This document shows, one piece after another, positions 24,646 to 64,000 of a DNA stretch of 64,000 nt; within the stretch, counting starts at the first letter, position 1; the number at the start of each line of letters is the position of its first letter. Made by a program: the position numbers and the translations under genes. The DNA is from an uncultured virus (IMG/VR IMGVR_UViG_3300037067_017589) (taxonomy: Duplodnaviria; Heunggongvirae; Uroviricota; Caudoviricetes), in the IMG/VR virus record IMGVR_UViG_3300037067_017589; one strand, given 5' to 3'. The notes under the pieces are model-generated. The model saw only the letters and a program-made list of their open reading frames with translations, ran no database searches and was not told the origin of the DNA.

Positions 24646-27600
24646 ATGGTAAGGCTTTATAATCCATCATTTATATATACTCGTTATCCATTTGATTTCG
24701 ATGACCCTACACCAGGAGATACTCATGGTTTACCTACAGTTATAGATTTAAAAACTCCAGTAAAAGCAGAGGTTGTAAATCGTCAAAAAGATTCAATTTT
24801 AGCTATTGAGTCTGAATTGGGTATAAAGCCTAGTGGAACATATGGAACTGTACGTGCCAGACTTGATGCTTTAGAGAGTCGTGATGGATATAATGATGGA
24901 TATGCTTATATTGATATTAGAAATAACGGTGTTTCAATTGTAAATCCAGTATCTGTTATTAATTTTATTGGTAGTGGAGTTTCAGTTGCAAAAGTTGGAA
25001 CAGATGAAGCAGAAATAACAATTACTGGTGGTGGAAGTGATGGTTACAGCAGTGATGGATATTGTCCAATTCATGAAGCTTTAATAGTTTCTTCTCCAGG
25101 TCAAACAACATTTACTCTTTTAACAAAACCTTGGTTAAATTCACTTGCATTATTTATAGATGGTATAAAACAGGAGATTGGAGACTATTCAATATCTAGT
25201 AAAACTCTTACATGGTTAGGAACACAAACATTAAGAACTACTGATATTGTAGAAGTTTATTATTCTAAAGTTATATTTATTGCTGGAGTGAATGGTGGTG
25301 AAAGTTTATCAGAAACATTATCAATTGGAAATATTACTGATGGTACTGATATTGTAATTACAGAAAATGATAAAATTTATAGTACAGGTAGTTTTACAAT
25401 AGAAATAAATGAAAGTACTTATTATGGCGCTATAAAAACATTAAATATTAATAATAATACATTTGGTTCTATAAATATGTTTGTAGGAAGGGATGGTGGC
25501 TCATCATTATCTTTAGACGGATATGGTATAGCTACATTATCATCAGATGATGTGTGTACATTATCTTCAAAAAATAAGACTGTAGTTAAAGTAGAAAATG
25601 ATGATAATGTAATTCAAATTTGTTCAACTAGTTTTAATCCTGGAAGTGCTATTGAATTATGGGTAGGTAATGAAGAAGAATATCATAATCGTTTTATAAG
25701 AATTAATGAAACAAGTATGTGTTCAGTATTAGATCCTAATAATACATATCCAGGAAATCCAGGAATAGATCTTGGTGCAAATCAAGATGGATATCGTTGG
25801 GGATCTTTATATGCTGCTGATGGTTATTTTACAAACAATTTAACAGTTAATAATTTAATAAATTCAAATGGAATAGTATTAAGTGATGGTTGTAGTATTA
25901 TTGGAACTACAAGTTTATTAAGTTCTGGTGGTAGTATTTATTTACTTGGAGGAGATGGTTATGATATTGGAGGTGAATTAACCATTGGTGGAGGAAATAG
26001 TTCAAATTCTATTGGTGGAAATACAGTTATCACTTCAGGAAATGGTTATGAATATCCAGGTGATATTGCTTTGTTTGCAGGAACTAGTTCAATTGGTTAT
26101 GGTGGAAATATTCATCTTATTTGTGGTGATAGTGGATCTGGAGAAAATCTAGGTGGACGTTTACAGATTGAAGCTGGTGATGGTTATTATGGAGGATCTG
26201 TTAATATTTATGCTGGAGAAGGTAGTTTATATGGAGGAGATGTTTTAATACTTCCTGGTGCAGCTACTGATGGTTTAGATGGAAGAATTCTGTTTTTAGA
26301 TTCTGAATTTAATCTTGTTGTTAAAATTGATAAAGATTGTGATATTGCACCATTAGAAGTTTATTACGATAGTTATTTTGCAAATAATGTAACAATTGGT
26401 GGAAAATTAACGGTTGATGGATTAATAGATCCAACAGGATTAGTATTAGTTGGTCAAAATTCAGTTCCTGGTGGAAATCCAGTTGATGGAAGTTCAACTT
26501 TATGGTTTAGAAATTCAGATGGTTATTTAATATCAACTGATAAAAATGGAAATGATATTGTAATTAATGGAATAGTTCCAGGAGCAGGAGATGCTAATAA
26601 AATAGTACAAGCCAGCTCTACTGGTAATGGAATTGATTATTCAATTATTGAATCATCTTTATCTAGTAGTATTGAAAATGATGGTCAAAGACATTTTAAA
26701 CGTAATGATACTGTTGTTATTACAGATTATCCTTATTCTGCTTCTGATCATTATATTTCTACTACAGGATCTATTAATAATGGATCTTCTACTTTAATTG
26801 TTGCAGATGGTTCTGAATTATTAAATAATTATGGAATAGTTATTCAAGGTGCAGGATCTGCACATGGATTAAAAACACCTAATGCTCCAGAAGTTTTTCA
26901 ACAAGGCACTACAGGAGCATCAACAGTAGAAGTTAAAGTAGTAGCAGCAACTCGTCATAGAGGCTATACAGTAGCATCATCTGCTACTACTATAGTAAAT
27001 GCCGCAGCGGCATTTACTAAAACAAATTGGTTAGGAGTTTGGCCAGAAATTATTCCAGGTGCAACATGGTATTTAATTTATGTAAGAAGAGGTGGAGTTG
27101 GAAGTTTTACACTTAGAAAAGTTATTCCTGGACAAATAACATTAAGTTATTCAAATGCTACTGGATCACATAGACCTGTAGTAGTTATTGATTCTGAAAC
27201 AGCCATTTCTACATTACCAATGTTTCCATTAACAGAACCTGTATCATCACAATCAAACTATTTAAGAACACGTATTATTTCAGGTGGTGGAACAACAAAT
27301 CTTATAATTAATACACCTGCTAGAACTACAGTTTCTAGTTTAAATGTATATAATGATAATTGGTCTGCTATTACAGATGCTCTTGATTCTTTTCCAAAAA
27401 TGCCAAATTCTCCAATATATCTTGGAGGAGATATTGAAATTCCACGTGGTGAATTTTTAATTTGGGATGATATACATGTAATGAAAACATCTTCAATTCG
27501 TGGACATGGTGGTAACTGGAATATTCCAATATCACAAATTAGACCTATAGATTCTCTTTATGGATTATCTATAGATCATAATAGAGATTGTCCTCAATGG

Positions 27601-29553
27601 ACACCTGGTGTTCCTGTAAAACTTGGGGATTCGTTAAGACCAGCAAGATATTGGAATAATTTAACATATATTTGGGAATGTACTACGCCTGGTATAACTG
27701 GAACAACATATCCTACTTTTACATATACAGTTGGTACAACAATTACAGATGGAAGTGTTGTATGGACTTGTGCTAATTATAAAACAATTACAGCAGCTCA
27801 ATCAATATTAGAACATTTTGGTTTAATAGCTTATAATAAATTATATATTGATGGTGTTAAAGCACCATTAATACCTGGAGCTTTTGAAGTTGCTGGAACA
27901 GAAATTGTTGCAAACTCAGTTCATAATACATATGCAACAGTGAAATTATGGACTCCTGGTGGAGATTTAGTAAGCGGTAGATATGTTGTACCTTCTGATG
28001 GGTATGAAACTGGTTTTAGATATAGGATTGGAAGTAGTGGAACTTCAGGATTAACAGAACCAATATGGAGTAAAATTCATAATTCGATTACACTTGATAA
28101 TGGAATAAGTTTAACAGCTGAATGGATGCCTGTTATTTGGGGTGCTGGTATTTTAACATCAGCACAAATGTCAGCTAATCATGTATGTGTTACATTTTCT
28201 TCAGGATGGGCTTGGTTTTTAAATGGTAAAAGTAGTGGAACTGGAACAAATACAGATGGTGCTATATTTGATAATATTTCAGCTTATGAATGTGGTGGTG
28301 GTATTTATATAGAAGGTTATGATGCTAGTATTGCTACATTTAATAATGCTTTTGTAGGCGTTTGTGGAGCTGGTCTTGTAGATCTTGGATTTTATGGTTC
28401 GCGTTTTATGAATTGTTTTTGGGAGTCTAATTATAGAGGACCTCAAAATTCATTAACAGGAGTACAATCATGTTCTCGTTTTGATGGTTGCTATTGGGAA
28501 GATGTTGCATCTGCAGCACCTGATCATTATTTATATTCACCTTCTCATGGTAGTGGTGGGGTAATTGGAGCAGGTACATTAATTAAAGGAACTATGAAAT
28601 GGTCACCATTGCCAAGTAGTAATGGTTTTAATTATGGTATGGTAAATTATAATCCAACATGTACTCATCCATTAACTTCGGTGATGTCATGGCCAGGAAC
28701 TGATTATTGTGCTTTTGAAACATATACACAATCTGATGGAGCATCTCAACTACGTGGTCATTTACGATTTTTATTTAATTATACGACAAGAATTTGGAGT
28801 ATGGGTTCTAGACAATATTCTCCATATAAAATAGCATATCAAATTGAACAAGGAAGTGCTCAAGGTGATATGTTTCAAGTTGATAAATTTCATTTAGGAG
28901 TAGGTAAATCACTACTTAGTGTTGTAAGTGGTGTACCAACAACTGGTTGCTATCAGGCTGGAGATTTATTATTATGGTCTAATCCATCTAGGTTGGCTAT
29001 AAAAAATAAAACAACTGGAGGATATTGTGTACCTCTTAATGATGGATATTGGACAAATAATCAAGCTTATGGAGCTGCTTCATCTAACGTTATAAGAAAT
29101 ACTATCAATACACATATTTTTGCAATAATAACTGGAGGAACATCAGGATCTGTTGAACCAACATGGAATACAACTCTCGGAACTATCACAACAGATGGTT
29201 CTTGTGAATGGATTTGTTGGTCTACTTATGCCGTACCAGAATGGATTTCTCAACCAGCACCTAGTGCAGATATATATAATCTTCCAGATTCAGATGCTGG
29301 AATTGGTTATGCAACTCGTAGAGCGCGTACAACTACAACATATACAAATCATCATTCAATAACGCTTTCTGCAATAGATGCTATTAAAGGAGATTTAATT
29401 GAAATTCTTCGTGACGATTCTGGCGTATCTTATCATGCCTATATAAAAAGAGCAGATACTACACTAATATATACGTTAGATTCTAAAGGATCAGTTGAAT
29501 TATTATTTGATGGTACAAATTGGATAGTATTAAGAGGATCTTCTTGGTTGTAA
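24646..29553 (+). CDS. Large virion fibre / receptor-binding-like protein
   Basis: 1635 aa, Gly/Ser/Thr-rich; glycine-rich beta repeats, a beta-helix-like region (GGDIEIPRGEF), three W...GT(S/T)G..(E/Y)P.W/F...TD modules and 12 DGY motifs. Confidence 0.7.
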   Translation: MVRLYNPSFIYTRYPFDFDDPTPGDTHGLPTVIDLKTPVKAEVVNRQKDSILAIESELGIKPSGTYGTVRARLDALESRDGYNDGYAYIDIRNNGVSIVNPVSVINFIGSGVSVAKVGTDEAEITITGGGSDGYSSDGYCPIHEALIVSSPGQTTFTLLTKPWLNSLALFIDGIKQEIGDYSISSKTLTWLGTQTLRTTDIVEVYYSKVIFIAGVNGGESLSETLSIGNITDGTDIVITENDKIYSTGSFTIEINESTYYGAIKTLNINNNTFGSINMFVGRDGGSSLSLDGYGIATLSSDDVCTLSSKNKTVVKVENDDNVIQICSTSFNPGSAIELWVGNEEEYHNRFIRINETSMCSVLDPNNTYPGNPGIDLGANQDGYRWGSLYAADGYFTNNLTVNNLINSNGIVLSDGCSIIGTTSLLSSGGSIYLLGGDGYDIGGELTIGGGNSSNSIGGNTVITSGNGYEYPGDIALFAGTSSIGYGGNIHLICGDSGSGENLGGRLQIEAGDGYYGGSVNIYAGEGSLYGGDVLILPGAATDGLDGRILFLDSEFNLVVKIDKDCDIAPLEVYYDSYFANNVTIGGKLTVDGLIDPTGLVLVGQNSVPGGNPVDGSSTLWFRNSDGYLISTDKNGNDIVINGIVPGAGDANKIVQASSTGNGIDYSIIESSLSSSIENDGQRHFKRNDTVVITDYPYSASDHYISTTGSINNGSSTLIVADGSELLNNYGIVIQGAGSAHGLKTPNAPEVFQQGTTGASTVEVKVVAATRHRGYTVASSATTIVNAAAAFTKTNWLGVWPEIIPGATWYLIYVRRGGVGSFTLRKVIPGQITLSYSNATGSHRPVVVIDSETAISTLPMFPLTEPVSSQSNYLRTRIISGGGTTNLIINTPARTTVSSLNVYNDNWSAITDALDSFPKMPNSPIYLGGDIEIPRGEFLIWDDIHVMKTSSIRGHGGNWNIPISQIRPIDSLYGLSIDHNRDCPQWTPGVPVKLGDSLRPARYWNNLTYIWECTTPGITGTTYPTFTYTVGTTITDGSVVWTCANYKTITAAQSILEHFGLIAYNKLYIDGVKAPLIPGAFEVAGTEIVANSVHNTYATVKLWTPGGDLVSGRYVVPSDGYETGFRYRIGSSGTSGLTEPIWSKIHNSITLDNGISLTAEWMPVIWGAGILTSAQMSANHVCVTFSSGWAWFLNGKSSGTGTNTDGAIFDNISAYECGGGIYIEGYDASIATFNNAFVGVCGAGLVDLGFYGSRFMNCFWESNYRGPQNSLTGVQSCSRFDGCYWEDVASAAPDHYLYSPSHGSGGVIGAGTLIKGTMKWSPLPSSNGFNYGMVNYNPTCTHPLTSVMSWPGTDYCAFETYTQSDGASQLRGHLRFLFNYTTRIWSMGSRQYSPYKIAYQIEQGSAQGDMFQVDKFHLGVGKSLLSVVSGVPTTGCYQAGDLLLWSNPSRLAIKNKTTGGYCVPLNDGYWTNNQAYGAASSNVIRNTINTHIFAIITGGTSGSVEPTWNTTLGTITTDGSCEWICWSTYAVPEWISQPAPSADIYNLPDSDAGIGYATRRARTTTTYTNHHSITLSAIDAIKGDLIEILRDDSGVSYHAYIKRADTTLIYTLDSKGSVELLFDGTNWIVLRGSSWL

Positions 29554-30697: not shown

Positions 30698-30710
30698 TAT
30701 ATTAATAATC

Positions 30711-31025: not shown

Positions 31026-31026
31026 T

Positions 31027-32050: not shown

Positions 32051-32434
32051 ATGGGATCTACAAAATATATATTCGCTAATACTGGACAATTAGTTCGTTT
32101 GGTTATTCAAACACTTGATATTGATGGTTATAGAATTGATGGCTATATTCCAGTTGTACAAAATATAATATTTCCAGATTTTAGTGTGGCTGTTGGTTAT
32201 CCAAGACATATGACTCAAGTTTACATAACTGGCGATGGATATGTTCCAGGTGTAGATGGTGATGGATATGTTTCAGGTTTATATATTCATGGATTATTAA
32301 TACCTACAGGTATTACTGCTTTAGGTACTTATGTAGCTAATGTGTATTGGGAAAATAATGGCCAACCACAATGGGATTCTTTTGCAATTAATGTTGCAAG
32401 ACCTTTTGGAAATTCATCCGTTTCACCTATTTAA
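32051..32434 (+). CDS. Small beta-rich putative virion protein (4 DGY motifs)
   Basis: Ig-like pattern; class B promoter motif upstream. Confidence 0.55.
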   Translation: MGSTKYIFANTGQLVRLVIQTLDIDGYRIDGYIPVVQNIIFPDFSVAVGYPRHMTQVYITGDGYVPGVDGDGYVSGLYIHGLLIPTGITALGTYVANVYWENNGQPQWDSFAINVARPFGNSSVSPI

Positions 32435-50680: not shown

Positions 50681-50705
50681 TAATTAAAATTTTAATTAAA
50701 ATAAT

Positions 50706-50734
50706 AAAACCCACATTATAAATTTGTGGGTTTT
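50706..50734 (+). terminator. Intrinsic terminator after the tube gene
   Basis: AAAACCCACA-loop-TGTGGGTTTT. Confidence 0.75.
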
Positions 50735-50811
50735 CTTGTTTAATTTTCTTGATATATTAAGATAGAGAAGATCTAAATTTTTTAGATTTATAAATAAGGA
50801 TATAATAAAAT

Positions 50812-51513: not shown

Positions 51514-51850
51514 AACTCCAGAACATCAATTTATAAGATTTTTAGTTAAAACTTTCGGAAAATTACCAGATGATTCTTTTTATGAGAATATTAACCCATA
51601 TTTAAGAGTATGGTTATATGAGAGTTGGATTCATGATATGGAATTAGAAGATGAAAAATTGAGAAATCAAGCAATATTTATTGGTTCTTTTTCTAATCCT
51701 GAAATGGCACAAAAGATTATTAAATCTGATAAACCTGATTTTGAGGCAACTGATTCAGAAGAAACCGCAAAAGATATTCATAAAGAAATTGTTAAAACTG
51801 AAAAACAAACAAAACGTAAAAAACGAAAAAAACATAAGGTGGTTGATTAA
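51488..51850 (+). CDS. gpT-like frameshift extension of the tail chaperone
   Basis: Frame is open from 51488, overlapping the chaperone end, with no ATG/GTG/TTG until 51638. Confidence 0.55.
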   Translation, partial: YRQSIKVVRTPEHQFIRFLVKTFGKLPDDSFYENINPYLRVWLYESWIHDMELEDEKLRNQAIFIGSFSNPEMAQKIIKSDKPDFEATDSEETAKDIHKEIVKTEKQTKRKKRKKHKVVD

Positions 51851-54579
51851 TGGCTGATGACGTAATTTCTCTTGAAAAATTAATAGATTTCGCTAAAACA
51901 TTAAGTGGCGATGCTTTTGATTCGGTAAATAGATTTGTTGAAGGTCTTAAAAATTTAGGTCAAACAACTACTAAAACCTCAGATGTAATAAAACTTTTAG
52001 GTTATGAATCTGGTAGTCAGTTTACTGCTATGGCTAATGGTTTAAAAACAGTTACTGAAAATTGTGAAGAAGCTTTTGATAGATTTGGAGTATTAAAACA
52101 ATTTGGAAAACAAGCTGCTGAAACAATAACAGAAGAATATAAAAAACTTACTTCACAAATGAATATTACATCTCATGGGTCGGTTACAACTGGAGTTACA
52201 ATGGCTATGGGGTTAGAACCCCTTATGGGAATTATACCAAGAGTGATTACTGGAGTAGGTAATATTGGACAAGCTGGGTTTGAAGCAGGTTCAAAAATAA
52301 GCACAGCATTTGAACCTTTTTCTACAATATTCCCTAAGGGTGTTGCTGAAATGATTAAAGGAGCTGATGCTGCATATCTTATAAAAAGTAAAGTTTTAGA
52401 AGCAGCAGCTTCTCAAGGTCGTTTTAGTGATACTATTGATGCTACTGGTCATGGTTTTAAAGATCTTAATATTCAATATAATGATTATGTAATGTTATCT
52501 TATAAATCTGCTCAAGCTACTGGGCAGACTATATCTTCTATGAACGAACTTCAGGATAGTTTAAAAGCTATTCCAGGTGCGTTGAGTGAGAATATAACTG
52601 TAGGAAATGTACAAATGAATCAAATGGTTGCTACTTCAAAAGTAGCAGCCGCTTTTGGCAAAACTCAAGAAGAAGTTGCTTTAAAATATAATGAATTATA
52701 TACCAATATGGGTGTAAGTGGTCAAGCGGCATTTGAATCATTATCTAATATATATAAACTTGCAGCAGATTCTTCTAAATTACGTGGAGCATTTGTTACA
52801 ACAGTATTAGATATTGCTAAATCTTTTAATATTCTTGGTGATAATACTGATGCTGCTACTAAAGTTGTAAAAGCATTTGATCAGGCATTTGAAGATAGTA
52901 AATTATCACCTGATGCAATACAAAAAGTAATTACTGGTCTTACAACTGGTGTACAAAAATTTGATCTTGCACGTGGTGCTTTTATATCTGGAGCTACTGG
53001 TGGTCAAAGTAGTTTAGCTGGTGGTTTGAAGATGGAATACGCTCTTCAAACTGGTAATCTTGAAGAGGTTATGGCTAAAACGCTTAGGGGTATTGAAAAT
53101 CAATTTGGTGGACAAATTGTTACATTAAAAGAGGCGGTGGAAAATCCGGGTTTATCTAGTGAATATTTAAAGCAAATGGAAATGATATCACAAATAACTG
53201 GTATTAATGATGAAAGACAAGCATCTCAAGTTTTGAATGCAATGAAAGAAGGAGTAATTGGAAAACTTGAAAGAGGTGAAAAAGATGAAACAACAGAAGC
53301 TCTTGTACAAGCTATAGATCTTGGTACTCAAAAACAAGATCCACTTCGCAATTCTATAATGCAAGTTTATCAAGAAGCTGAATTAATACGTTTAACACAA
53401 GATTCAATGTATCAAACAGCTTTAAAACAATCAGACAGTGCATTACGTTCAGCTTTGGGTATTGAAATGATGGCAGCTGATGCAGCTTCTAGAGAATCTT
53501 CTAGAGGTGGTTTATTTGTAGATACTACAGCATCAAGAACTGATAAAAAACATCTAACAATTAATGAATCAATTGATGAAAAAATTGGATGGTTTAATAA
53601 ATTATATGAAAAATATACTAGTAAATCAGAAGAAAAAAAAGAAGAACCAACTTTAACAACTGAAACTGTTAAAATAGTTCCAGAAGTAGTTCCAGAAGTA
53701 GTTTCAAACCTATCAAACCCCAGAACACCTGGAATTCCAATTAGTGAGAAATTACCATCTACAATTCCGGTAGTTCCAGGACCACCACCACCAGAACCAA
53801 GTGGAGATATTTTACCAATACCACTAAAACCTGAAAAAATATCTTTAACTACTAAGATACCACCATTAGTTACACCTTCACCATTTAATATAGCACATTC
53901 CATTACACCACCACCTGTTGTATCAGGAGTTGGAATACCTCCATCTGCAAATATACCATCATTAACAACTAGAGAAATAACACCAACAACTTCTAATTTT
54001 ATTGCTGAAAGAAGTTCTCCTATTATTACACCTGGACTTCCAAAAGCCACATCAACTGAAAAGATTGATAAAATAAATAGTGCAACACCAGATGTAATAA
54101 ATGAGATGAAAGTTTACAATGATAGAGCTGCTAAAGTAGCAGATCAATTTGAAAAATTAGACTCAATTAATAAAGAAGATAAAATAAAAGAACCGGTACA
54201 AACAATAATACCATCTAAGACAGAATATAAAGTTGATAAAACAATTAATTCAAAAGAAAATGAAAAAACATTACAACAACATATAACTTCTATTATTAAT
54301 AAAAACAAACATGAACAAGAAATTAAATCAACAGCATTACCTCCTATACCTTATAGAGAATCTATAGTTGAAGAAATAGCTAAAGGTACTAAAAAAGAAT
54401 CTGAAGAAAGAAATGGTTTAACTACAGAACCTATAACTTTTAAATTTGATCCATTAGATCTTACTGTTTCATTTAAGATTGAAGATCTTAATGGATTGGA
54501 GGAAGTTGTAAAAACTGTTGTAACTAATATGAATTTAAATACAAGTTCAGGACCTTATAATGGAAACGCTAATGGTTAA
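51850..54579 (+). CDS. Tape-measure-like protein with a Pro-rich C-terminal region
   Basis: Ala/Gly-rich helical N-terminal ~600 aa; canonical position after the chaperone. Confidence 0.65.
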   Translation: MADDVISLEKLIDFAKTLSGDAFDSVNRFVEGLKNLGQTTTKTSDVIKLLGYESGSQFTAMANGLKTVTENCEEAFDRFGVLKQFGKQAAETITEEYKKLTSQMNITSHGSVTTGVTMAMGLEPLMGIIPRVITGVGNIGQAGFEAGSKISTAFEPFSTIFPKGVAEMIKGADAAYLIKSKVLEAAASQGRFSDTIDATGHGFKDLNIQYNDYVMLSYKSAQATGQTISSMNELQDSLKAIPGALSENITVGNVQMNQMVATSKVAAAFGKTQEEVALKYNELYTNMGVSGQAAFESLSNIYKLAADSSKLRGAFVTTVLDIAKSFNILGDNTDAATKVVKAFDQAFEDSKLSPDAIQKVITGLTTGVQKFDLARGAFISGATGGQSSLAGGLKMEYALQTGNLEEVMAKTLRGIENQFGGQIVTLKEAVENPGLSSEYLKQMEMISQITGINDERQASQVLNAMKEGVIGKLERGEKDETTEALVQAIDLGTQKQDPLRNSIMQVYQEAELIRLTQDSMYQTALKQSDSALRSALGIEMMAADAASRESSRGGLFVDTTASRTDKKHLTINESIDEKIGWFNKLYEKYTSKSEEKKEEPTLTTETVKIVPEVVPEVVSNLSNPRTPGIPISEKLPSTIPVVPGPPPPEPSGDILPIPLKPEKISLTTKIPPLVTPSPFNIAHSITPPPVVSGVGIPPSANIPSLTTREITPTTSNFIAERSSPIITPGLPKATSTEKIDKINSATPDVINEMKVYNDRAAKVADQFEKLDSINKEDKIKEPVQTIIPSKTEYKVDKTINSKENEKTLQQHITSIINKNKHEQEIKSTALPPIPYRESIVEEIAKGTKKESEERNGLTTEPITFKFDPLDLTVSFKIEDLNGLEEVVKTVVTNMNLNTSSGPYNGNANG

Positions 54580-54644
54580 TATTTTACACATATAGGAACG
54601 TTAATGGTCAGTATTCTATACATAAGGTTTAATCGAGGTGTTAA

Positions 54645-55583
54645 ATGAGTGACTTTTTAGAACAAATTAATAATAGAATTGATGGGTCATACAATAATGC
54701 TAGGGGTATTGTTAGAGGAAGTGGTGGAAACGCTCAGGGCTTTAGTGATTTAGCTGTAATACCACCTCCAACAGGAAGTGCTGTACGCCAAGCTCAAATT
54801 GCAAATGAACGTGATGCTATTGCAAAAAGAAATATGGTTCGTTGGTTTCTTCCAGAGACTGGTATTGTTGAAATGTATATAAATCCTAAAAATATAGAAT
54901 ATTCATATAAGAAACATATAACCTCACCAGTAAGAACACGTGGTGGGTATTCAATACAATATTATGGAGAAGATTTAGGACAAATTGTTATTCGTGGTAC
55001 AACAGGTTCTTCTGGTGTTGAGGGTATAAATGTTCTTGAAGATATTTATAGAAACGAACAAGTTTCCATGGATGCTTTAGCAATGGCTGCTGAAGCTGCT
55101 AGAAAAAATAATTCTAGTAATTATGCAAATGTTGATCTTGGTTTTGGAAATTTTATAGCAGAAGGTATTGATGATATGTTTGATACAGTTGATTCTGTTA
55201 TAAATACTGGAAGTGCAGATCCGGCAATACAACAACCTACATTAGCATCAATAGCATTTCAAACTGAGATGTATTGGTCTGGTTGGGTATTTAGAGGGTT
55301 TTTTATAAGTTTTGGAGTTACTGAAAGTTCTGATAATATTGGATTATTTGATTATTCAATTAATTTTACAGTTACACAAAAGCGTGGTTTACGATTAAAC
55401 TATATGCCTTGGCATAGAAGTGCTGTTCATGGTCCATCATATACAGATCCATTATTTGGTAGACCATATTCATTTGGAACTTTGAGAGATCCTTCATCAA
55501 AGACAAGTTATTCAGCATCTCCTATAATAAAAAGAGTAGTAGCTACTGTTGATGCTGCTTTGACAAGTTATCGTCCGATTTAA
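54645..55583 (+). CDS. Baseplate / tail-tube initiator-like protein
   Basis: MYINP..I.Y..K....RT.GG...QY.GE.L..I.I.GTTG and FRGFF..F...ES....FDY...F pattern; follows the tape measure gene. Confidence 0.6.
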   Translation: MSDFLEQINNRIDGSYNNARGIVRGSGGNAQGFSDLAVIPPPTGSAVRQAQIANERDAIAKRNMVRWFLPETGIVEMYINPKNIEYSYKKHITSPVRTRGGYSIQYYGEDLGQIVIRGTTGSSGVEGINVLEDIYRNEQVSMDALAMAAEAARKNNSSNYANVDLGFGNFIAEGIDDMFDTVDSVINTGSADPAIQQPTLASIAFQTEMYWSGWVFRGFFISFGVTESSDNIGLFDYSINFTVTQKRGLRLNYMPWHRSAVHGPSYTDPLFGRPYSFGTLRDPSSKTSYSASPIIKRVVATVDAALTSYRPI

Positions 55584-55612
55584 TTTAGGTTAAACCTGAT
55601 ATATGGTAAAGT

Positions 55613-58600
55613 ATGAATTTCTTATCTTCACTTGGTAATATTATAAACGATCAATTTGGAATTGGCGAAAATACAAAAGGTACTGTTAAAGTTTTAGGCG
55701 ATAAATCTGCTGAAAGGTCTTATATAGAAAATGGTTTTATACGAAATTTAAGACCAAGAAAAAGATCTATATTATTTCAACAACCAGATATTTATGTTGT
55801 AGTAAAAAAAAGGATGTTTTCTTCTTTAGTAAATAATTCTAGATTAGATTATTTAGAAAAAAAAGAAAGAATACTAATTGCTGCATCAAAAAAATTATTT
55901 CAAAATAAATGCAAATTAATATCAGCTTATGAAAAACTTACTAAAATTGAAAAATTAGCAATTGATAGTGGTAGTTTTAATACATTTTTAGGACCTTCAT
56001 TTATTAATTTAATAGATAGTTTAGATACATTGGGTGGAGCTACTGGTTTATTTTCACTTGATGCTAGTACAAAATCAGCTATAGAAACTCTTAGAAAAGT
56101 TTTATCTTATTCTATGCCAACTGATTTTACTAGTTGGACAACTAATGATTGGGATGCTTCTTTTTCTGATGAAGTTGGAGAAGGTCCAGGAACAATGGAA
56201 TTAACTATTGTTTCTAGTATTAGTACTAAAACATCTGTAGAATGGGGAGGAGGTAGTGCTAATTTAACACTTGAAGATCCTTATAATTTATTAACAATTA
56301 CTGAACAAGATATTGATCAGGCTTTAACTGATGTTACAAATGTATACAGAGAAGGTGGATTTTTTAAATTTACCAAAACAGAATTAGAAAATACAATAAG
56401 AGATTTACAAGGAGAGTTAGCAGTTGAAAGAAGGTCTAGGAATGCTAGCAATATTACATTTAAAATTAGTCCAGGAACAGTTGTTTCTAAAAGAGTAAGA
56501 GCGATTCTTGATGATGAAAGTACTGATATAAGATTTCAATATTCTACTGGTTTATCAGGAGAAGATGGAAGTGTAGGAGAAGTTTTATCAAGTGTTTTTG
56601 TTTCTATTGGTAATACAATTTCAGGTGGCAATGTAGAAATTGAACCTGAATTTTTAGAAGGATATAATTCAATTAATGTAAGTATAAATAATCAATTAAC
56701 AAAATCTGAACAAAAGAAATTTGTACAAATTATAGGTAATATTTTTACTCTATTAGGATATAATCAAACAAGTAAAGCCGAATTAAATCAAGCATCTGCA
56801 GAAATTAATTATGCACGTAATAGAATGAGATTATTTTTTAATGGGAAATATGTAATTCAACCTATGGATGTAATTACAATTTTCATGTCAAGTAGGACTA
56901 GTGAAGATGATCGTTTACCTGGCGGATTTCAAAAACAACAAAATGAAAGTGGATTTTCTTTAATAAATAGATTTGATACTATATTAAAAAATATAAATAA
57001 TACTGTAGGGGATATGCAAACAAATGGCAAACTTGAAACTATAATGTCATTTGAAGATATAGAGCGTTCCAGTATGGTTGGTGCTGGTTTTCCAAAATGG
57101 TTATGGAGACAATTTAAACAAGATATTACATGTCAACCTACAGGACCTTGTATTTTTACAGGTCTTGTTGGAGCAATGGGACAAGGTGTGGTTGGAACGT
57201 GGTCAGATGGTAAGTGGACAGTTTCAGTAACTTGTAATGATAATTCTGCTTATTTTTCTCAAGGGTATATAAATTTTCAACCATCTGCTGATGTTCTTAA
57301 TGCTAGTATTTACGATCCACTAACTCCATTTGATGTTAGTTTAGATGCTTCAACTGGAACTGCTTTAACAGATACGACTGAAGGAGACTTACCTCAATTA
57401 TTACCAGAAAATAAAATGTTAATTCAAACAGGATTATTAACTTATGGAAGTGGACCAGAAAAAGGTAATTCTGTTACAGAAGAAAATTTAAAACAACAAA
57501 CAAGTGAAATTACTTTTGGTAAATTTAGAAATGTACTTCATGCACCAAATGGATTAGTTTATAGATGGAAACAAGGAATTCAAACTTTAACTTGGCTTTC
57601 AAAACCAGAAAACTCTACAGAAGAAAATAGAGCAGTATTATTAACACCACAACCATTTGCCGGTCAAGATGTTATGAATGTAATATCTATGTTAGTTACT
57701 GGTCAACCATATAACTATGATACTTTCTTAAAAGCTGCAATTGCAAATGGTAATTCATTAGGGTCAAATGATAATATTAGTAATATTACAGCTGCAACTA
57801 CTTATATTCAAGGTTTATTAAATGATATTGAAAAAACTAATTGTATTTGGGGTAATTTTATACCTTATAAAAAATTAGTTATGAATCCATCTATTAACAC
57901 TTTAATTACACAAACCAGATTAGATGCTGTTTCGAACAATGAACAATTAACAAAATTACTTAGAGAAAGAGCTTCTGTTGAAGATGAAATAATGATGTTA
58001 GCTGATGGTTTTAATGTAGATTTAAATAGTCTTTTCACTAAAAATGAAGCTGGACAATCTGTATTATCAAATTCTTCCACTAATACAATAGAAACAGATG
58101 CAGCAACTGATGCTAAAAGAAGACTTGATAGTATTGATGAACAAATAAATAATCTTCAAGGATATTTTGATAAAAAATATAAAGAATCAAACAATCAAGA
58201 AATTGGTTTAACGATTATGGGAACAGATGTAAATACTAATTTAACATCTGTTAATGATGCTAGTTCAAGTAATGCTCAAAAACAAAGAGATGAATTAGAA
58301 TTAAGAAGAAATTTATTTAGATTTACAGCTAGAAGATTTTGGAAAGTAAAAGCTAATGAAGATCAAAATTTATTTATAGTAGATGATCAGTATGATAAAA
58401 ATTTTGATTTAATGGCATTTGAAAGAAAGATTGGAAGTACTATTAAATTATTTGATAGTCCATATTCATCTGTTGCAGATCAGATTAATAATGTTAAAAA
58501 ATTACTTGGTTTTGAAGTCTTTGCAAATACACAAGGACATATAGAAGCACGTCCACCTGGATATAATAAAGTACCAAGTTCTGTTTTTTATAAGATGTTT

Positions 58601-60760
58601 AAAGATCGCGATACAAAAGGAACTAAAGTATTTCCAGATTTTCTTGAATCATTATATTTTAATCAGAGTAAGGCTTTATTAACTCAAATAGAAATTATAG
58701 AAGATGAAATAAGGCTTAGAGCGGTTGCTTTGGGCGCTAATAATGATGATGAAATTATTAAATTAATAGTATGTGGTTCAAATATAGGAACATATTCATC
58801 TGCGGACTTTGGATTTTTAACTACATTTGATGGAGGTATACAAAATATTCCAGCTATATTAACACAAATTCGTCCGGAATATTCTGAACATGCGAATTCT
58901 CAAGGACTTACATCAGTTAAAGATGCAAAAGAACAACTTAGTAAATACCAACAAAATATTTCAATATATTTAAAAAAGAATAGATTATTTACTATTAGTA
59001 CTCAAATCAAAGCTAATAAAGAATTTAATACTACAGTTGATCCAGATCAACAAGCTACAATAGTTGAAAAAATTAGAATAAAACTAAGGAATAAAACTGG
59101 ACTTGAACCAAAAAATCTTAGTGATCTTTTTACAAATGATAGATTTCGTCGTCTTGAAACACATGCAGTAAGTAGAAGTGATAGATTAAATCTATTTTTA
59201 CAAATTGGAAGTTTAATATCACAAAGACAAACATTATTATATTCTCTTTCAAATGCTATGAGAAGTTTTGTAGATGGTTTATCTATCAATACACCTGATG
59301 AAAAAAATCAAAACATTTTTAGTGGTGGTTTGAGTAATTTAGATGAACCAACTAATTCTAATGCTGTAGGTCGTTCTATAGCAACTCCAAATTTAAATAG
59401 ACATACTGAAATTCCAGAATATTTAGAACATATGATTGAATATGAAAATGATGATAATTTAGGAGTTAATTCTGGTCGTCGTTTTATTATTACAGCTGAT
59501 CGTATTGTTAGTTTGACTATTTCTGAAAATGCTCCTCAATACACTATGATAAGTGTTAATGGAATGTTTGCTGAAGGTCTTGTTGATTCTGGAAGTAGTT
59601 TTAAAACAAATTTTGATGGAAAGAACGAAAGTAATCTAATGTCTTCTGCTATAGCTGTAGATTATGATATGTGGTATCAATATGGTTTTAAAGTGCCTAC
59701 ATCTATTGAAGCTCCATTTTTAAGTGATCCAGATAGTCAATGCGCACCATATGCATATGCTACATTGTTACAGGCACGTGAAAATATTTTACAAGGTTCT
59801 GTTCAAATTACTGGTTATAATGAGTTTTATCAACCTGGTGATGTTGTATATATTGAAGATAGAAATTTATTATTTTATGTTAGAGGTGTGCAACATAATT
59901 TTAGTTATGGGCAATTAAATACAACATTAGATCTTTCATATGGTCACAATTCAGGTGAATATATTCCAACTATGTTAGATGTTGTTGGTAAAATTTTATA
60001 TAATAGCCGTGGTTTTACTGGTAGATTTAGAAATGAAAGATATCAGATGTTAGGAGCTTCTCGTTCATTAGGAGCTTTAACAATTGAAAATAAAATTTCA
60101 TTTACAGAATCTATAAGTGAAAATAATATATTATTTAGTAACACAGAACCTATGGTAAAATTATTAAGTGGTAGGAATGGAGAAAGAAATAAGAATATTC
60201 TTACAAATACATTATTTGCTATAAGTGGTAATTTTAATCAAACTGGATTTGGTACTAATAAAACAAGAATAAAAATAGTATATTATAAAACACAAGAAGA
60301 TACAGCTACTTACATGGCTCAATTAGCAACAGCTGTTCTTGAATGGCTTGTTTCTCCAGAAAAAATGACACCTGATGGTCTTAGTGCTGATGTTTTTATG
60401 CAAGATGGTACAGGAAATCAAAAAGTATTTGGTATTAATGCTGAAGATATTATAATTGAAGAGGTTGATTTAACAAATTCCAAACAACAAACTAGACGTC
60501 GTACTTATCCAGAAAACAAATCTCCTGAACCAAATACACAAGGACCTTCTAGTGCAGCTATTGCAGCTACCAGAGTAATGTCAGCATCAGATATTAAACC
60601 AACACAATTTTCAAATATATTAGCTAGTTGTATTTTAGATTTATTTGTAGATTATGAAGATGTTAAAGAAACAATAAGTCAATCAGATGATGGAAGTGAA
60701 TATGGTCAACAGTCAAATGCTTCAATTGATGAAGCTCGCCAAATTGGAAGAATTTCTTAA
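55613..60760 (+). CDS. Large baseplate hub-like protein
   Basis: QPMDVITIFM, FEVFA.TQG.I..RPP.YN and QPGDVVYI....LFYV.GV.H.FSYG...TTL.LSYG resemble T4 gp27/gpD-type hub motifs. Confidence 0.6.
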   Translation: MNFLSSLGNIINDQFGIGENTKGTVKVLGDKSAERSYIENGFIRNLRPRKRSILFQQPDIYVVVKKRMFSSLVNNSRLDYLEKKERILIAASKKLFQNKCKLISAYEKLTKIEKLAIDSGSFNTFLGPSFINLIDSLDTLGGATGLFSLDASTKSAIETLRKVLSYSMPTDFTSWTTNDWDASFSDEVGEGPGTMELTIVSSISTKTSVEWGGGSANLTLEDPYNLLTITEQDIDQALTDVTNVYREGGFFKFTKTELENTIRDLQGELAVERRSRNASNITFKISPGTVVSKRVRAILDDESTDIRFQYSTGLSGEDGSVGEVLSSVFVSIGNTISGGNVEIEPEFLEGYNSINVSINNQLTKSEQKKFVQIIGNIFTLLGYNQTSKAELNQASAEINYARNRMRLFFNGKYVIQPMDVITIFMSSRTSEDDRLPGGFQKQQNESGFSLINRFDTILKNINNTVGDMQTNGKLETIMSFEDIERSSMVGAGFPKWLWRQFKQDITCQPTGPCIFTGLVGAMGQGVVGTWSDGKWTVSVTCNDNSAYFSQGYINFQPSADVLNASIYDPLTPFDVSLDASTGTALTDTTEGDLPQLLPENKMLIQTGLLTYGSGPEKGNSVTEENLKQQTSEITFGKFRNVLHAPNGLVYRWKQGIQTLTWLSKPENSTEENRAVLLTPQPFAGQDVMNVISMLVTGQPYNYDTFLKAAIANGNSLGSNDNISNITAATTYIQGLLNDIEKTNCIWGNFIPYKKLVMNPSINTLITQTRLDAVSNNEQLTKLLRERASVEDEIMMLADGFNVDLNSLFTKNEAGQSVLSNSSTNTIETDAATDAKRRLDSIDEQINNLQGYFDKKYKESNNQEIGLTIMGTDVNTNLTSVNDASSSNAQKQRDELELRRNLFRFTARRFWKVKANEDQNLFIVDDQYDKNFDLMAFERKIGSTIKLFDSPYSSVADQINNVKKLLGFEVFANTQGHIEARPPGYNKVPSSVFYKMFKDRDTKGTKVFPDFLESLYFNQSKALLTQIEIIEDEIRLRAVALGANNDDEIIKLIVCGSNIGTYSSADFGFLTTFDGGIQNIPAILTQIRPEYSEHANSQGLTSVKDAKEQLSKYQQNISIYLKKNRLFTISTQIKANKEFNTTVDPDQQATIVEKIRIKLRNKTGLEPKNLSDLFTNDRFRRLETHAVSRSDRLNLFLQIGSLISQRQTLLYSLSNAMRSFVDGLSINTPDEKNQNIFSGGLSNLDEPTNSNAVGRSIATPNLNRHTEIPEYLEHMIEYENDDNLGVNSGRRFIITADRIVSLTISENAPQYTMISVNGMFAEGLVDSGSSFKTNFDGKNESNLMSSAIAVDYDMWYQYGFKVPTSIEAPFLSDPDSQCAPYAYATLLQARENILQGSVQITGYNEFYQPGDVVYIEDRNLLFYVRGVQHNFSYGQLNTTLDLSYGHNSGEYIPTMLDVVGKILYNSRGFTGRFRNERYQMLGASRSLGALTIENKISFTESISENNILFSNTEPMVKLLSGRNGERNKNILTNTLFAISGNFNQTGFGTNKTRIKIVYYKTQEDTATYMAQLATAVLEWLVSPEKMTPDGLSADVFMQDGTGNQKVFGINAEDIIIEEVDLTNSKQQTRRRTYPENKSPEPNTQGPSSAAIAATRVMSASDIKPTQFSNILASCILDLFVDYEDVKETISQSDDGSEYGQQSNASIDEARQIGRIS

Positions 60761-60827
60761 AAATTAATAATTTTCCAATATAATATATAAACAGTTAAAT
60801 AGTACAGTTGAATAGTTAGGTGATAAT

Positions 60828-62876
60828 TTGAGTAAAATTCAAAAACAAACAAACATAGGTAACATAGGTTCAGTAATTGGTATACCTGTGCGAGGTGTTA
60901 TTAAGAGGGTTGATATACAAAATGGTATTGTTTATGTTAATCTTCCTCATACAGATACTGATATACAGTATCCAGTAAAATGGCCAGCTGCTTGGATGGG
61001 TATACATGGGGAAGTTGCCTTAGGTTATCCAGAGATAGGTACAAATATTTTTGTTACTGTTAGTCAAGGTGGAGAATTTGTTTTTTTAAATTATAATCAA
61101 CAAAAAATGACAAGGTCATATTCTCCAAGTGGTAAAAGGAGAGTTGATTCAAGTACCAAATTAGGACCTGGAAGATGGGTAACACTTGTACAAAATGATA
61201 TTAGTTTTATAGTTGATCCTAATCAAGGAATATTAGAAGGAGATTCACTTCAATTTACTCAAGCAGATCCTGTTCATAATATGTGGAGTACTAAATTTAA
61301 TCAATTGATGGGTTTTTCAGAAGCTCATAGACAAACAATTGGTCCAATAAAAAGAGATGATAAATCAAGTAGTACTCGTGGAGAAGATGGTTCTTCATTA
61401 TATGGACATAATTATAGCGCAGGTTTAAGACATATAGGATTAGATCCATTTACTAATGTATCTGTTTCGGTAGGTGGAAATAGAAATCCTGGTTTAACAG
61501 AAAATCGTTCGATGTTCTATGAATTTATAGATAGTTTTAGTTATACAAGTGATATAGAAGAGGAAAGATTATATGCTGGAGAAGATGTTTCTAGTACAAA
61601 ATCTTACCAAAGAAAAAGCAGTATTACAGATACTTTAAGTCTTAGTTTAGATCAACCAAATTATTTGTTAGAAATTATAATTGGTACTGTTGTTGATATT
61701 TATGGAAATATTTTAGATTTAAATAGAAATATTTTACCAAATGGTTTAATAGATTCATTATCATTTAGAAAATCAACTGAAGATAATAAAAATATTGTTT
61801 TTAAAAAATTATTAGAGCAATTAAGAAAAAGTGTAGCATATCATTTTGAATTAAATGCTAGAAAAAATAATTTCAATCTTCCGGATTATAAAGATACAAC
61901 TGATTATGTTAGAAATAGAAGCAGATTTCAATTAGATATAGATAAAGAAGGTCAATTTAAAATTAATGTTCCATGTTCTAGTGAGGTAGGAAACGTTCCA
62001 TTATTAGTACGTCATGAAAATTTTTCTAATTTGAAAGGATTTGAGCAAGGTGATTCTAAATCTCAAAAATCAGCTGATCGTGGGCAATTTTTACGCAATG
62101 GTACAGATAAGAAAGATGTATTTTTAGAACCTTATGGAAAGGGGTGTGTAACTTTAAAGAGTAATGAAGATGAATTAAATAGTTATTTATCTCCAACTGA
62201 TAGAAATAATAAAGATAATATAATACAATTAGGAACAGCTTATCATTATATAAATAATGTATTATTTTCACATAAATTTGAGAATATATATGGAAGTGAT
62301 GGTGGTACGGGAGGATATCCAAATAGTATTTTAAATTTAATACCTCCAGTTAGTGATATTGTATCTTCGGAAGTTATCGTAGCTGGTAATGGAGCTAATG
62401 CTGGTGGTAGGAGTGGTACTTTTTCACTTGATGGGTTTTTGTCTTTAAGTATTGGTGCTAATACAGTTGATCGTCAAAGTTTATGGTTGGATTGTGCTGG
62501 TGGTATAGTATCTGCAATTGGAAGAGATAAATATAATAGATCTGTTTCTGCTTCATTAGATGGAGATTTATTTTTGGAAGTGGGTGGTCCCACAATTAAT
62601 GATGATTCAAGATTCCCTACAGTTAATTATAATAACACAGCAAGAGATGGAATAATAGATATTAGGATATGGAATTCTGGAAGTTTTCATACTATAAGAG
62701 TTGATAATGAAGGAATAAAAATTCATACACCACAAAGAATTGATATAGTTAGTGAAGGGGAGATGAGGTTTAAATCTGTTAAGAATAATATAACATTTGA
62801 TGCTGAGAATATTACATTTTATAGCAGCATGTCACCTCCTAGAGAAGTTGAGAGAACACCTGGTGTAAAAATATAG
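60828..62876 (+). CDS. Baseplate central spike-like protein (gp5/gpV/VgrG-like)
   Basis: OB-fold-like N-terminus (RGVIKRVD..NG.V.V...GYP.IG..I.V) and beta-repeat C-terminus; TTG start after an AGGTG RBS. Confidence 0.55.
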   Translation: MSKIQKQTNIGNIGSVIGIPVRGVIKRVDIQNGIVYVNLPHTDTDIQYPVKWPAAWMGIHGEVALGYPEIGTNIFVTVSQGGEFVFLNYNQQKMTRSYSPSGKRRVDSSTKLGPGRWVTLVQNDISFIVDPNQGILEGDSLQFTQADPVHNMWSTKFNQLMGFSEAHRQTIGPIKRDDKSSSTRGEDGSSLYGHNYSAGLRHIGLDPFTNVSVSVGGNRNPGLTENRSMFYEFIDSFSYTSDIEEERLYAGEDVSSTKSYQRKSSITDTLSLSLDQPNYLLEIIIGTVVDIYGNILDLNRNILPNGLIDSLSFRKSTEDNKNIVFKKLLEQLRKSVAYHFELNARKNNFNLPDYKDTTDYVRNRSRFQLDIDKEGQFKINVPCSSEVGNVPLLVRHENFSNLKGFEQGDSKSQKSADRGQFLRNGTDKKDVFLEPYGKGCVTLKSNEDELNSYLSPTDRNNKDNIIQLGTAYHYINNVLFSHKFENIYGSDGGTGGYPNSILNLIPPVSDIVSSEVIVAGNGANAGGRSGTFSLDGFLSLSIGANTVDRQSLWLDCAGGIVSAIGRDKYNRSVSASLDGDLFLEVGGPTINDDSRFPTVNYNNTARDGIIDIRIWNSGSFHTIRVDNEGIKIHTPQRIDIVSEGEMRFKSVKNNITFDAENITFYSSMSPPREVERTPGVKI

Positions 62877-62884
62877 GATAATAT

Positions 62885-64000
62885 ATGGTTTGTGATCCAT
62901 CAAAAAATAGTATAGACATTATAGTTGGTCCTGGACCACATTTACCTGGTATGGGCGATCCTTTTTCTATTCCAAAAATACCATTTCCTGATGTAAATCT
63001 ACCATTTGGACCTGAAGATTTATTAGATTTAATGGAAAGATTATTTGCATTACTTCCTACAGGTATTAGACTTGATGTAAATTTTGATGATTTTTCAAAA
63101 TCAGCATGGGATGCTATAGCAAACTTATTAAATAAACTAGCACCATTTCTTGCTTTTTATAAATTTATACAAGCACTTCTTAATATTATTTTATGTATAA
63201 TTGATATTGTTTGTGCTCTTATGAATCCATGGTCAACTGTAAAGGCTGTAAAACGTTTATTTAAAACATGTTTACCAGCATTTTTAGCTTTATTTCCTTG
63301 GCTCGCTTTAATATTAATGATTTTAGCTTTAATATTATTATTAATAGCATTAATAGAATATATAATACAAAGAATTATTGATTATATTAAACAATTAATA
63401 GCAAATATTATAGTATTAGTTGATGCTATACATAAACATGATGAAGATTCAATCTTAAAATGCATACAAAAGATGTCAAATCTAATATGTTTATTAGAAC
63501 AATTAATGGCTATTTTATTAGCAGTGGGTGCATTATTTGCAATAATAAGACCATTAATGGATATTGGTGGTCGTGGAGTATGTGCTAGGGGTAGTGGAGG
63601 TGGAGATCCTGAAGATGTGCAACAAGCTCTTGGTATTTGTTGTACAGAAGATTTTTGTCCAGATTTTATATCAAATTATAGTCCGGACGGACCAAGATCT
63701 GAAACTGGTCGTTTTATTTATCAACGACAACTTAATACTGTAATTCCTTCTGAATTTTCATTTTTAAGTGTTAATAGTTTATCACCATTAAGACCACAAC
63801 GTTTTCAATTTATTGATGATAATCCACAAGGATTTAAATTTTTAGATATTATTACTCCATCACCATCTGGATTTACATATTGGCCAGAAGGTGAATCATA
63901 TGATAGTACTGCTAATACTTTTAGAGTTCCATATTTATTAGATATGAATGTTGGAGTAAACCCTAGTCTTTTTGGAAATCCAGCAGATTTAGATGGATAT
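62885..64000 (+). CDS. Hydrophobic, Cys-containing protein, 3'-truncated (absent from the ORF track)
   Basis: ATG 62885 after AGGA RBS: MVCDPSKNS...FLALFPWLALILMILALILLLIALIEYII...; the last three codons of the window read D-G-Y in this frame. Confidence 0.75.
   Translation, partial: MVCDPSKNSIDIIVGPGPHLPGMGDPFSIPKIPFPDVNLPFGPEDLLDLMERLFALLPTGIRLDVNFDDFSKSAWDAIANLLNKLAPFLAFYKFIQALLNIILCIIDIVCALMNPWSTVKAVKRLFKTCLPAFLALFPWLALILMILALILLLIALIEYIIQRIIDYIKQLIANIIVLVDAIHKHDEDSILKCIQKMSNLICLLEQLMAILLAVGALFAIIRPLMDIGGRGVCARGSGGGDPEDVQQALGICCTEDFCPDFISNYSPDGPRSETGRFIYQRQLNTVIPSEFSFLSVNSLSPLRPQRFQFIDDNPQGFKFLDIITPSPSGFTYWPEGESYDSTANTFRVPYLLDMNVGVNPSLFGNPADLDGY

Follow-up and report, generated by a model that had tools for sequence, protein, structure and literature searches.

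The question raised by this locus is why one exact tripeptide, Asp-Gly-Tyr (DGY), recurs in protein after protein of a phage virion. The stretch of DNA analysed here, referred to as the window, comprises 64,000 nucleotides of an uncultured virus (IMG/VR record IMGVR_UViG_3300037067_017589; Caudoviricetes). All of its long open reading frames (ORFs) lie on the + strand, its GC content is ~0.28, and 24.6-64 kb is the virion module of a contractile-tailed phage, in which a sheath (phrog_2839) and a tube-initiator-like protein stand beside many proteins that match no family. A first-pass annotation, made from the sequence alone, had proposed that DGY is a recognition tag on exposed turns of the outer virion proteins, most simply a Tyr glycosylation site served by a sugar-gene cluster at 1-8.8 kb. 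We found that the neck, sheath and fibre proteins of the clade to which this phage belongs carry exact DGY at some ten to fifteen times chance, and that its inner tail proteins are without it.

DGY in the late proteins of the window

The per-ORF counts given by the first-pass annotation proved exact, with 37 DGYs in nine late proteins that total 6526 amino acids. Its estimate that composition would yield only a few was also borne out, as 2.61 are expected from per-protein composition across the 23 late ORFs (12,587 amino acids; Poisson P 1.5e-29 for the excess). Shuffling residues within each protein 5000 times gave a mean of 2.63 and a maximum of 10, and a first-order expectation built on the dipeptides DG and GY is 10.8. 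DGY is the sole outlier tripeptide in these ORFs, the next having a P of ~1e-4, and its near variants have observed/expected counts of 7/2.5 (DGF), 4/3.3 (NGY) and 2/2.1 (EGY). The reported absence of DGY from the proteins of 1-24.5 kb was likewise correct (0 in 23 ORFs), a zero that is uninformative alone since only ~1.0 DGY is expected there. When structural and non-structural proteins are compared, the excess survives correction for composition and is limited to structural regions.

Moreover, DGY is absent, as had been stated, from the five ORFs starting at 50015, 51850, 54645, 55613 and 60828, which had been called tube, tape measure, tube initiator, hub and spike. Apart from the tube initiator, these names follow gene order; family support exists only for the sheath (phrog_2839, E 1.2e-6) and for the tube initiator (PF23980, E 8.9e-5, below the cut-off). 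The features concerned are listed below, with family counts given as DGY observed against expected, pooled over orthologues.

24646..29553, + strand: 1635-amino-acid virion protein with 12 DGY (10 in the first 625 residues) and a head-decoration-like C-terminal stretch (phrog_20658, E 2.8e-13, residues 1468-1534); family 26 against 1.0
32051..32434, + strand: 127-amino-acid protein with 4 DGY as two pairs (DGYRIDGY; DGYVPGVDGDGY); family 13 against 0.2
36772..38382, + strand: 536-amino-acid neck protein with 5 DGY (residues 27, 168, 186, 189, 228); AlphaFold2 model and structure matches given below
38411..41383, + strand: 990-amino-acid virion protein with 1 DGY; family 36 against 4.4
41844..46460, + strand: 1538-amino-acid virion protein with 9 DGY; family 212 against 17.3
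46504..47319, + strand: 271-amino-acid protein upstream of the sheath with 1 DGY, in a DGYGN column kept in 5/7 orthologues; family 58 against 3.8
47405..49879, + strand: 824-amino-acid tail sheath with 3 DGY (residues 186, 203, 409); conserved C-terminal sheath domain at residues 630-819 by phrog_2839 (Pfam PF04984 below the cut-off) and a tblastn match to the sheath of Bacillus phage G; family 222 against 12.1
50812..51513, + strand: 233-amino-acid protein with 1 DGY, encoded after the tube-like gene and before the long tail gene; family 17 against 0.8
62885..64000, + strand: baseplate-region protein clipped by the window end, with 1 DGY at residue 370; its full-length copy of 775 amino acids in the closest record (G001) has 4
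50015..62876, + strand: inner-tail block without DGY, comprising the tube-like 50015-50680, 51850-54579, the tube initiator 54645-55583, 55613-60760 and 60828-62876 (50812-51513 falls within this span yet is not counted in the block)

The first-pass annotation had argued from varied codons that the motif is selected as a peptide. The argument is weak within the window, where 33 of the 37 sites read GATGG[AT]TAT, merely the codon bias of the genome (GAT 97%, TAT 95%), but the conclusion stands. The degenerate pattern GAYGGNTAY occurs 38 times on the + strand of the window, 37 of them in frame, and not once on the - strand, and relatives with a GC content of 0.31-0.54 use every DGY codon combination; selection on the peptide follows from these three observations, and a DNA-level motif or codon artefact was rejected on the same grounds. 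In whole records the pattern is found ~100 times on the gene strand, compared with ~20-28 for a reversed-pattern control.

A single homologous repeat domain was also considered as a general cause. Collapsing orthologous copies reduced 590 unique site contexts to 233 clusters, and the flanks of these are unrelated, which rules out such a domain. One shared add-on domain does carry DGYs, in that sheath residues ~100-250 recur in neck-protein homologues, and part of the spread can be put down to this domain, just as the preference of the window sites for the commonest codons is what an artefact would leave behind. However, with shuffles never exceeding 10, matches confined to one strand and almost wholly in frame, an excess that persists across the range of GC content and the unrelated flanks, there is practically no chance that the signal is a product of composition, of biased codon usage, of a motif in the DNA or of a single repeated domain, and the tests made refute such an artefact.

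The motif across the clade and on the virion

The relatives of the window are uncultured huge phages on contigs of up to 459 kb, the closest being G001, a 106-kb viral record with 99% identity over most of the window. Across 81 related loci, a count that leaves out three loci identical to the window, DGY is found 568 times against 64.5 expected and 80 of the 81 exceed expectation. Observed/expected counts for whole records are 68/6.2 (G001), 84/23.1 (G002), 92/16.6 (G006), 105/20.9 (G008) and 87/16.2 (G018). DGY is the top tripeptide in all four DGY-rich genomes tested; in the DGY-rich genomes its excess is restricted to structural regions, the remainder being near expectation. An open frame at 55,700-55,830 of G002 (L017), outside the structural region, contains a Gly/Tyr-rich run, GDGYGSGYGDGYGSGYGDGYGDGYGDGYGDGSGYGYG, that is excluded from the DGY counts as the ORF caller took another frame.

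The signal has a boundary. A sister clade with orthologous virion genes (sheath ~40% identical) holds 82 DGYs against 37.0 expected in 56 loci (2.2x), with whole-record counts of 35/21.0 (G004) and 32/15.8 (G005), and DGY is no outlier tripeptide there. Most of the few sites in the sister clade occur as tandem pairs, within two or three giant proteins of fibre-like type, e.g. DGYGYGDAYDGY aligned to DGYDAYDAYDAYDGY. Further afield, some distant sheath representatives from a library of 1.8 billion proteins are free of DGY and others are rich in it (50 against 5.2 expected in the best 40). Therefore, the trait is probably wider and patchier than both clades.

Pooled over the clade, the outer families contain 634 DGYs against 41.8 expected (15.2x). 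Here the tripeptide is strict: NGY is at 0.86x, EGY at 0.27x, DAY at 0.35x and DGW at 0.30x, with only DGF raised (2.7x). The four inner families (tube-like, 51850, tube initiator and 55613) contain 2 DGYs against 20.3 expected (0.10x), in the presence of 95 DGFs against 36.2 (2.6x) and with the five permutations of D, G and Y at 0.49-1.13x. Moreover, of the 195 non-Tyr states found at 23 DGY columns, 17 are Phe (8.7%), compared with 44% of 2913 at other Tyr columns. The low rate of Phe substitution, together with the contrast between DGF and DGY in the inner proteins, indicates that the Tyr hydroxyl matters. The data are consistent with a DG turn followed by an aromatic residue being generally favoured in these proteins, the Tyr version being strongly selected outside the tail and lacking inside it.

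The short motif suffices without conserved flanks, as each of 16 flanking positions in the 233 site clusters carries no more than 0.15 bit. Lys, Met, Glu and Arg are under-represented in these flanks, and Pro directly follows the Tyr in 2 of the 233. A calcium-binding DxDxDG or EF-hand-like context was ruled out, Asp not being enriched at -2 or -4, and so was a collagen-like G-X-Y reading of (DGY)n, which fits neither the shortness of the arrays nor the DAY found in the same loops of the sister clade. Adjacency to alignment gaps was tried as a proxy for loops and discarded as contradictory (0.998 against a background of 0.49 in the neck family, 0.26 against 0.34 in the sheath).

Some sites are widely conserved and others are lineage-specific. 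Two sheath columns are kept in 9/10 orthologues and four sites of the neck-protein family in 85-98 of 102 homologues (residues 27, 186 and 228 in 89, 98 and 96, respectively). At the other extreme, the orthologue of the 38411 protein in L008 has a tandem insert, DGYDGYDGYGGDGYDGYGTDGY, a loop built of the motif only, and the 41844 protein has a motif-only insert, DGYIWDEGEDGYIWQDGY, that is missing in 5/5 orthologues; up to six copies are found in tandem within one loop. Conserved columns and lineage-specific tandem inserts thus show both purifying selection on DGY and gain of it.

To place the sites, an AlphaFold2 model of the neck protein (36772-38382) was built from 102 homologues (predicted local distance difference test, pLDDT, 87; predicted template modelling score, pTM, 0.71). 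Residues 297-465 form a core that matches phage neck, stopper and tail-terminator chains (Foldseek, VIA; Z 10-11), among them the neck structures of phage 812, FCWL1, Pam3 and T1, and residues 6-218 are an N-terminal add-on with FN3-domain matches (Z 9-10). All five modelled DGYs (27, 168, 186, 189 and 228) fall outside the neck core, at strand-turn boundaries or in loops; the fourth conserved site of the family (287) is in a low-confidence loop of the model. Likewise, the sheath DGYs (186, 203 and 409) are all N-terminal of the conserved sheath domain (~630-819), and two of them (186, 203) belong to the domain at residues ~100-250 that recurs in other virion proteins, including longer neck-protein homologues. 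By analogy with known phage architecture, such add-on domains would face outward.

In the family consensus, the C-terminus of the neck protein contains three His-x-His pairs (H488/H490, H514/H516 and H529/H531) that are invariant in the 102 homologues and that may resemble the metal-binding HxH repeats of T4 fibre proteins.

A proposed tag on Tyr, its candidate writer and its rivals

Judged from sequence and model, DGY would best be explained as a self-contained, three-residue tag that is read on exposed Tyr, since this reading alone covers the strict residues, the absence of conserved flanks, the preference for Tyr over Phe, the lack inside the tail, the tandem gains and the clade boundary. 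To this extent the proposal of a recognition tag is upheld, by a peptide-level, context-free motif that is clade-wide, located on outer and add-on parts, acquired in loops and as tandem inserts and missing from the inner tail. What did not hold is the 1-8.8 kb cluster as the source of the transferase.

413..8810, + strand: nucleotide-sugar genes (methyltransferase, DegT aminotransferase, sugar C-methyltransferase, 4,6-dehydratase and two epimerase/reductases)

A Pfam scan of the 1-8.8 kb cluster returned no glycosyltransferase; the cluster comprises nucleotide-sugar enzymes only, and transferases are located beyond the window start. As seen in G001, these genes are the tail end of a larger glycan island of ~20 kb, which beyond the window start includes, adjoining the window sugar genes, four GT2, one GT4, GT10- and GT11-like glycosyltransferases, two sulfotransferases, an acetyltransferase and methyltransferases. 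The GT4 of this island adjoins a DGY-bearing protein with a Peptidase_S74 domain. Two TnpB/IS605 OrfB-like genes (86,925-88,073 and 92,041-93,336) are found between transferase and methyltransferase genes of the same island (L246). The window and G001 are 99% identical across 4892-64000, except for a short divergent stretch at 53931-54584 (77%), whilst the first 4.9 kb match at 82% (2979-4546) or not at all. Thus near-identical phages differ at one end of the sugar cluster (1-4891).

A better candidate comes from genes that follow the clade boundary. Of the 727 proteins of G002, 44 are conserved in G006 and G008 and have no BLAST match in the DGY-poor G004 and G005; 29 of the 44 also match G018. 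Among the 44 is a block right behind the last fibre gene that reads GT2, GT2, a 318-amino-acid protein without known function, GT2, GT2. One of these GT2s, of 262 amino acids (L247:4451-5239), has a strong orthologue, at 42-58% identity, in all 15 DGY-rich large contigs, the divergent long-sheath subclade included, compared with none of 7 DGY-poor contigs. Its ESM Atlas model is a confident GT-A fold (pTM 0.90), its clusters are 97-100% viral, and its family is about as large as that of the neck protein (429 and 428 homologues, respectively). Sequence searches of the PDB returned nothing for this GT2, for the sheath profile or for a 323-amino-acid protein, and for the GT2+7C protein they returned polysaccharide synthases only.

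Gene order behind the fibres is common to both clades, with fibre genes followed by an orthologous GT4 and further transferases; the transferase island directly succeeds the distal fibre genes in G002 and G018, and G004 and G005 have the same order. What comes after the GT4 differs: GT2s where DGY is abundant, and enzymes of the GT4 type in the DGY-poor clade. A change in the transferase set behind a shared GT4 therefore coincides with the rise of DGY.

We suggest the following mechanism. Late in infection a soluble phage GT-A glycosyltransferase would be at work in the cytoplasm, the best candidate for the writer being the 262-amino-acid GT2 encoded right behind the distal fibre genes. This enzyme would recognise Asp-Gly-Tyr on exposed turns and put a first sugar on the Tyr hydroxyl, which neighbouring transferases and the nucleotide-sugar enzymes of 1-8.8 kb would lengthen into a lineage-variable glycan coating the tail exterior. 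The tags would sit on outward-facing parts, namely the neck and sheath add-on domains, the periphery of the baseplate, the fibres and the head-decoration-like protein. Attachment to DGY, Tyr as the acceptor, the GT2 as the writer and the role as a coat are four separate steps, each of which we infer from sequence. Tyr O-glycosylation by the conserved candidate GT2 is the most plausible chemistry, and we would put it somewhat short of an even chance. More tentative still is the proposal in full, i.e. that DGY is the sequon of a phage-encoded cytoplasmic Tyr O-glycosylation in which a small viral GT2 acts on thousands of Tyr per virion and a lineage-variable island builds a complex coat on neck, sheath, baseplate and fibres, with the motif purged inside the tail, throughout a large and globally distributed clade.

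Several observations weigh against glycosylation of DGY. Several sites of the neck family are near-invariant, as structural residues would be, and the position of DGY at beta turns or strand starts according to DSSP is what a purely structural DG turn would predict likewise. The clade-wide counts are pooled over orthologues, which are related sequences and non-independent events, although they all point the same way. Non-structural proteins are near DGY expectation, where a promiscuous cytoplasmic enzyme might have depleted them. Sugar genes as such do not predict DGY: the expected co-occurrence of DGY with glycosyltransferase clusters failed to separate the two groups, as DGY-poor phages carry large transferase islands too. 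Two other genes of the GT2 block are found in 12/15 contigs each, and the long-sheath subclade, DGY-rich though it is, has neither. The correlation of the 262-amino-acid GT2 with DGY is suggestive rather than proof, since it reflects one evolutionary split common to at least 29 genes, and a flavin adenine dinucleotide (FAD)-dependent protein is nearly as well correlated (13/15 against 0/7).

The strongest rival dispenses with modification altogether. DGY might be a Tyr-presenting beta turn that serves as a weak multivalent adhesive or contact patch, comparable to the Tyr/Gly/Asp-rich loops of antibody paratopes, and directed at host-surface polysaccharide, environmental polymers or contacts between add-on domains. 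A generic DG turn with an aromatic residue opening the next strand fits all five modelled sites, each at a turn or strand start, and the rise of DGF by ~2.6x in inner and outer families alike implies that such a turn is good local structure here. Near-invariance of many sites is in keeping with this idea, tandem DGY loops would suit multivalent binding, and the sites occur on FN3-like and other add-on domains, which in phages serve adhesion. However, the idea leaves unexplained why Tyr is preferred to Phe, why inner proteins have DGY at 0.10x beside DGF at 2.6x, why DGW is at 0.30x and why Asn or Glu fails to replace Asp; nor does it account for clade specificity, as the sister clade manages without the motif on orthologous domains. 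We consider an unmodified adhesive turn rather unlikely, though less so than the two explanations that follow.

A tag read by some other enzyme would share with glycosylation the strictness of Tyr and the avoidance in inner proteins, which suit any Tyr chemistry, be it oxidation or hydroxylation, tail-hardening Tyr-Tyr cross-linking, phosphorylation, ADP-ribosylation or sulfation. Several enzymes unrelated to sugars are confined to the DGY-rich clade, including a PTP-like phosphatase, a PARP-like protein and, best conserved at 44-71% identity, the FAD-dependent oxidoreductase-like protein, whose gene in G001 adjoins a DGY-rich fibre gene. Yet family searches were uninformative for this last protein, and two DGY-rich contigs of the 15, both of them incomplete, gave no match to it; for the PARP-like protein, G018 gave none; and none of these genes is in the late fibre operon, unlike the transferases. 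Phage-encoded Tyr sulfation was rejected, as the sulfotransferases are not conserved (PF03567 in 1/16 DGY-rich against 3/7 DGY-poor records; PF13469 in 2/16 DGY-rich records, below the cut-off). On balance another Tyr chemistry seems improbable, and more improbable again is that DGY serves for docking by a phage protein, e.g. a decoration protein or an assembly chaperone, which would bind it on many virion proteins. A context-free motif on outer parts that is lacking from inner proteins would be compatible with docking, and small clade-specific proteins without known function do occur amid the structural genes (e.g. 31578-32036 and 24228-24530), but three residues offer little binding energy, no candidate binder was identified and tandem arrays of up to six DGYs are hard to fit with ordered decoration.

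Known systems and neighbouring genes

Three-residue glycosylation sequons include N-X-S/T and, in the O-glycosylation of Bacteroidota, which acts outside the cytoplasm, D-(S/T)-(A/I/L/V/M/T). DGY resembles them in being short and context-free, with an invariant acceptor-type residue, Pro disfavoured alongside and free gain and loss on exposed parts. In contrast to them it is free of Ser, Thr and Asn, with Tyr as the would-be acceptor; moreover, virions assemble in the cytoplasm, unlike the extracytoplasmic setting of the Bacteroidota system. For such sequons see also PMC8698959.

Mycobacteriophage virions are reported to be O-glycosylated by phage-encoded glycosyltransferases (Freeman et al. 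2023, as cited in PMC12619734). As in the present phages, the transferases are encoded near the structural genes and a glycan coat on virion surfaces is proposed; the glycans there are reported at the C-termini of capsid and tail-tube subunits. By contrast, the tube-like family of the present clade has 1 DGY against 2.5 expected and the major head protein of G002 has none; the motif is on sheath, neck and fibres, and the proposed site is a strict Tyr-containing tripeptide known from sequence alone.

Chloroviruses and giant viruses are viruses of eukaryotes with N-linked glycans on the major capsid protein. Their capsids, according to the excerpts of PMC5408694, PMC9614988 and PMC4691112, are glycosylated autonomously by virus-encoded enzymes at non-canonical sequons. 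The likeness to the present phages lies in a large virus with nucleotide-sugar enzymes and many transferases, whose own structural proteins would receive glycans within the cytoplasm and at a site peculiar to the virus; the difference lies in a tailed phage with Tyr as the would-be acceptor and with the tail exterior, rather than the capsid shell, as the target.

Tyr O-glycosylation itself has precedents in Yersinia Afp18 and YeGT, which act on Rho, and in the S-layers of Paenibacillus (PMC4518317, PMC11152714 and PMC2943079, in excerpt). From these it is clear that a Tyr hydroxyl can be glycosylated by soluble enzymes of the GT-A fold, and that bacterial surface arrays do bear glycans linked to Tyr. 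They differ in relying on recognition of a folded target or on a membrane oligosaccharyltransferase, and the excerpts describe no DGY-type sequon. The PDB sequence search, being empty, gave no relation of the phage GT2 to enzymes of the Afp18/YeGT type.

Our search of the literature on phage DGY, Tyr glycosylation and viral glycosylation found no description of such a motif. If DGY does mark a modification, the surface chemistry of an uncultured clade of huge phages could be read from sequence, including which proteins face outward, how dense the coat is and how it varies from one lineage to another. DGY would then be the first Tyr sequon of three residues, with the first proposed glycan coat legible directly from a genome sequence, and would add a Tyr-based sequon with a compact viral writer enzyme to protein glycosylation, possibly as an orthogonal tagging pair. 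Even unmodified, a strict, context-free tripeptide that is 15-fold up on the outer proteins of the virion, 10-fold under expectation on the inner proteins and almost missing from a sister clade has no published counterpart that we found.

The remaining genes of the window can be described briefly. A NifS/IscS-like cysteine desulfurase gene (29621-30697) forms part of the virion module, keeps its position in G001, G002, G006 and G008, and has no match in the DGY-poor genomes nor in G018. It was set aside as a reader of DGY, being clade-specific but without a G018 match or a plausible link to the motif; a methionine aminopeptidase (23202), also clade-specific yet with no plausible link, was set aside too. 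Two homing-endonuclease genes, HNH (30711-31025) and LAGLIDADG (33436-34581), are found amid the structural genes. The best G002 match of the latter is elsewhere in that genome (253830-255695, 23% identity) and the next ORF (34665-36185, 506 amino acids) has no match in G002, and therefore the two look like an insertion.

The 1-24.5 kb region contains the methionine aminopeptidase gene, together with genes for the nucleotide-sugar enzymes, for helicases, a tubulin homologue and a sigma-like factor, and for a ribonucleotide reductase that has an intein-like insert. A sequence of ~318 bp is present in three copies in its intergenic gaps (4582-4899, 9042-9358 and 11137-11454) and is 97% identical to two copies in G001. 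In the large subunit of the ribonucleotide reductase (18076-21999, 1307 amino acids), residues 747-823 match LAGLIDADG_3 and are flanked by barrel-domain matches, an intein-like arrangement. As to wider affiliation, the window phage may be kin to the moraphage lineage, characterised in the excerpts of PMC12619734 as large aquatic phages with DnaJ and four core glycosyltransferase groups. Lastly, the tubulin/FtsZ-family gene (9655-11028) encodes 457 amino acids and its orthologue in G018 (152,932-155,736) 934, about twice the length, which suggests an insertion in G018.

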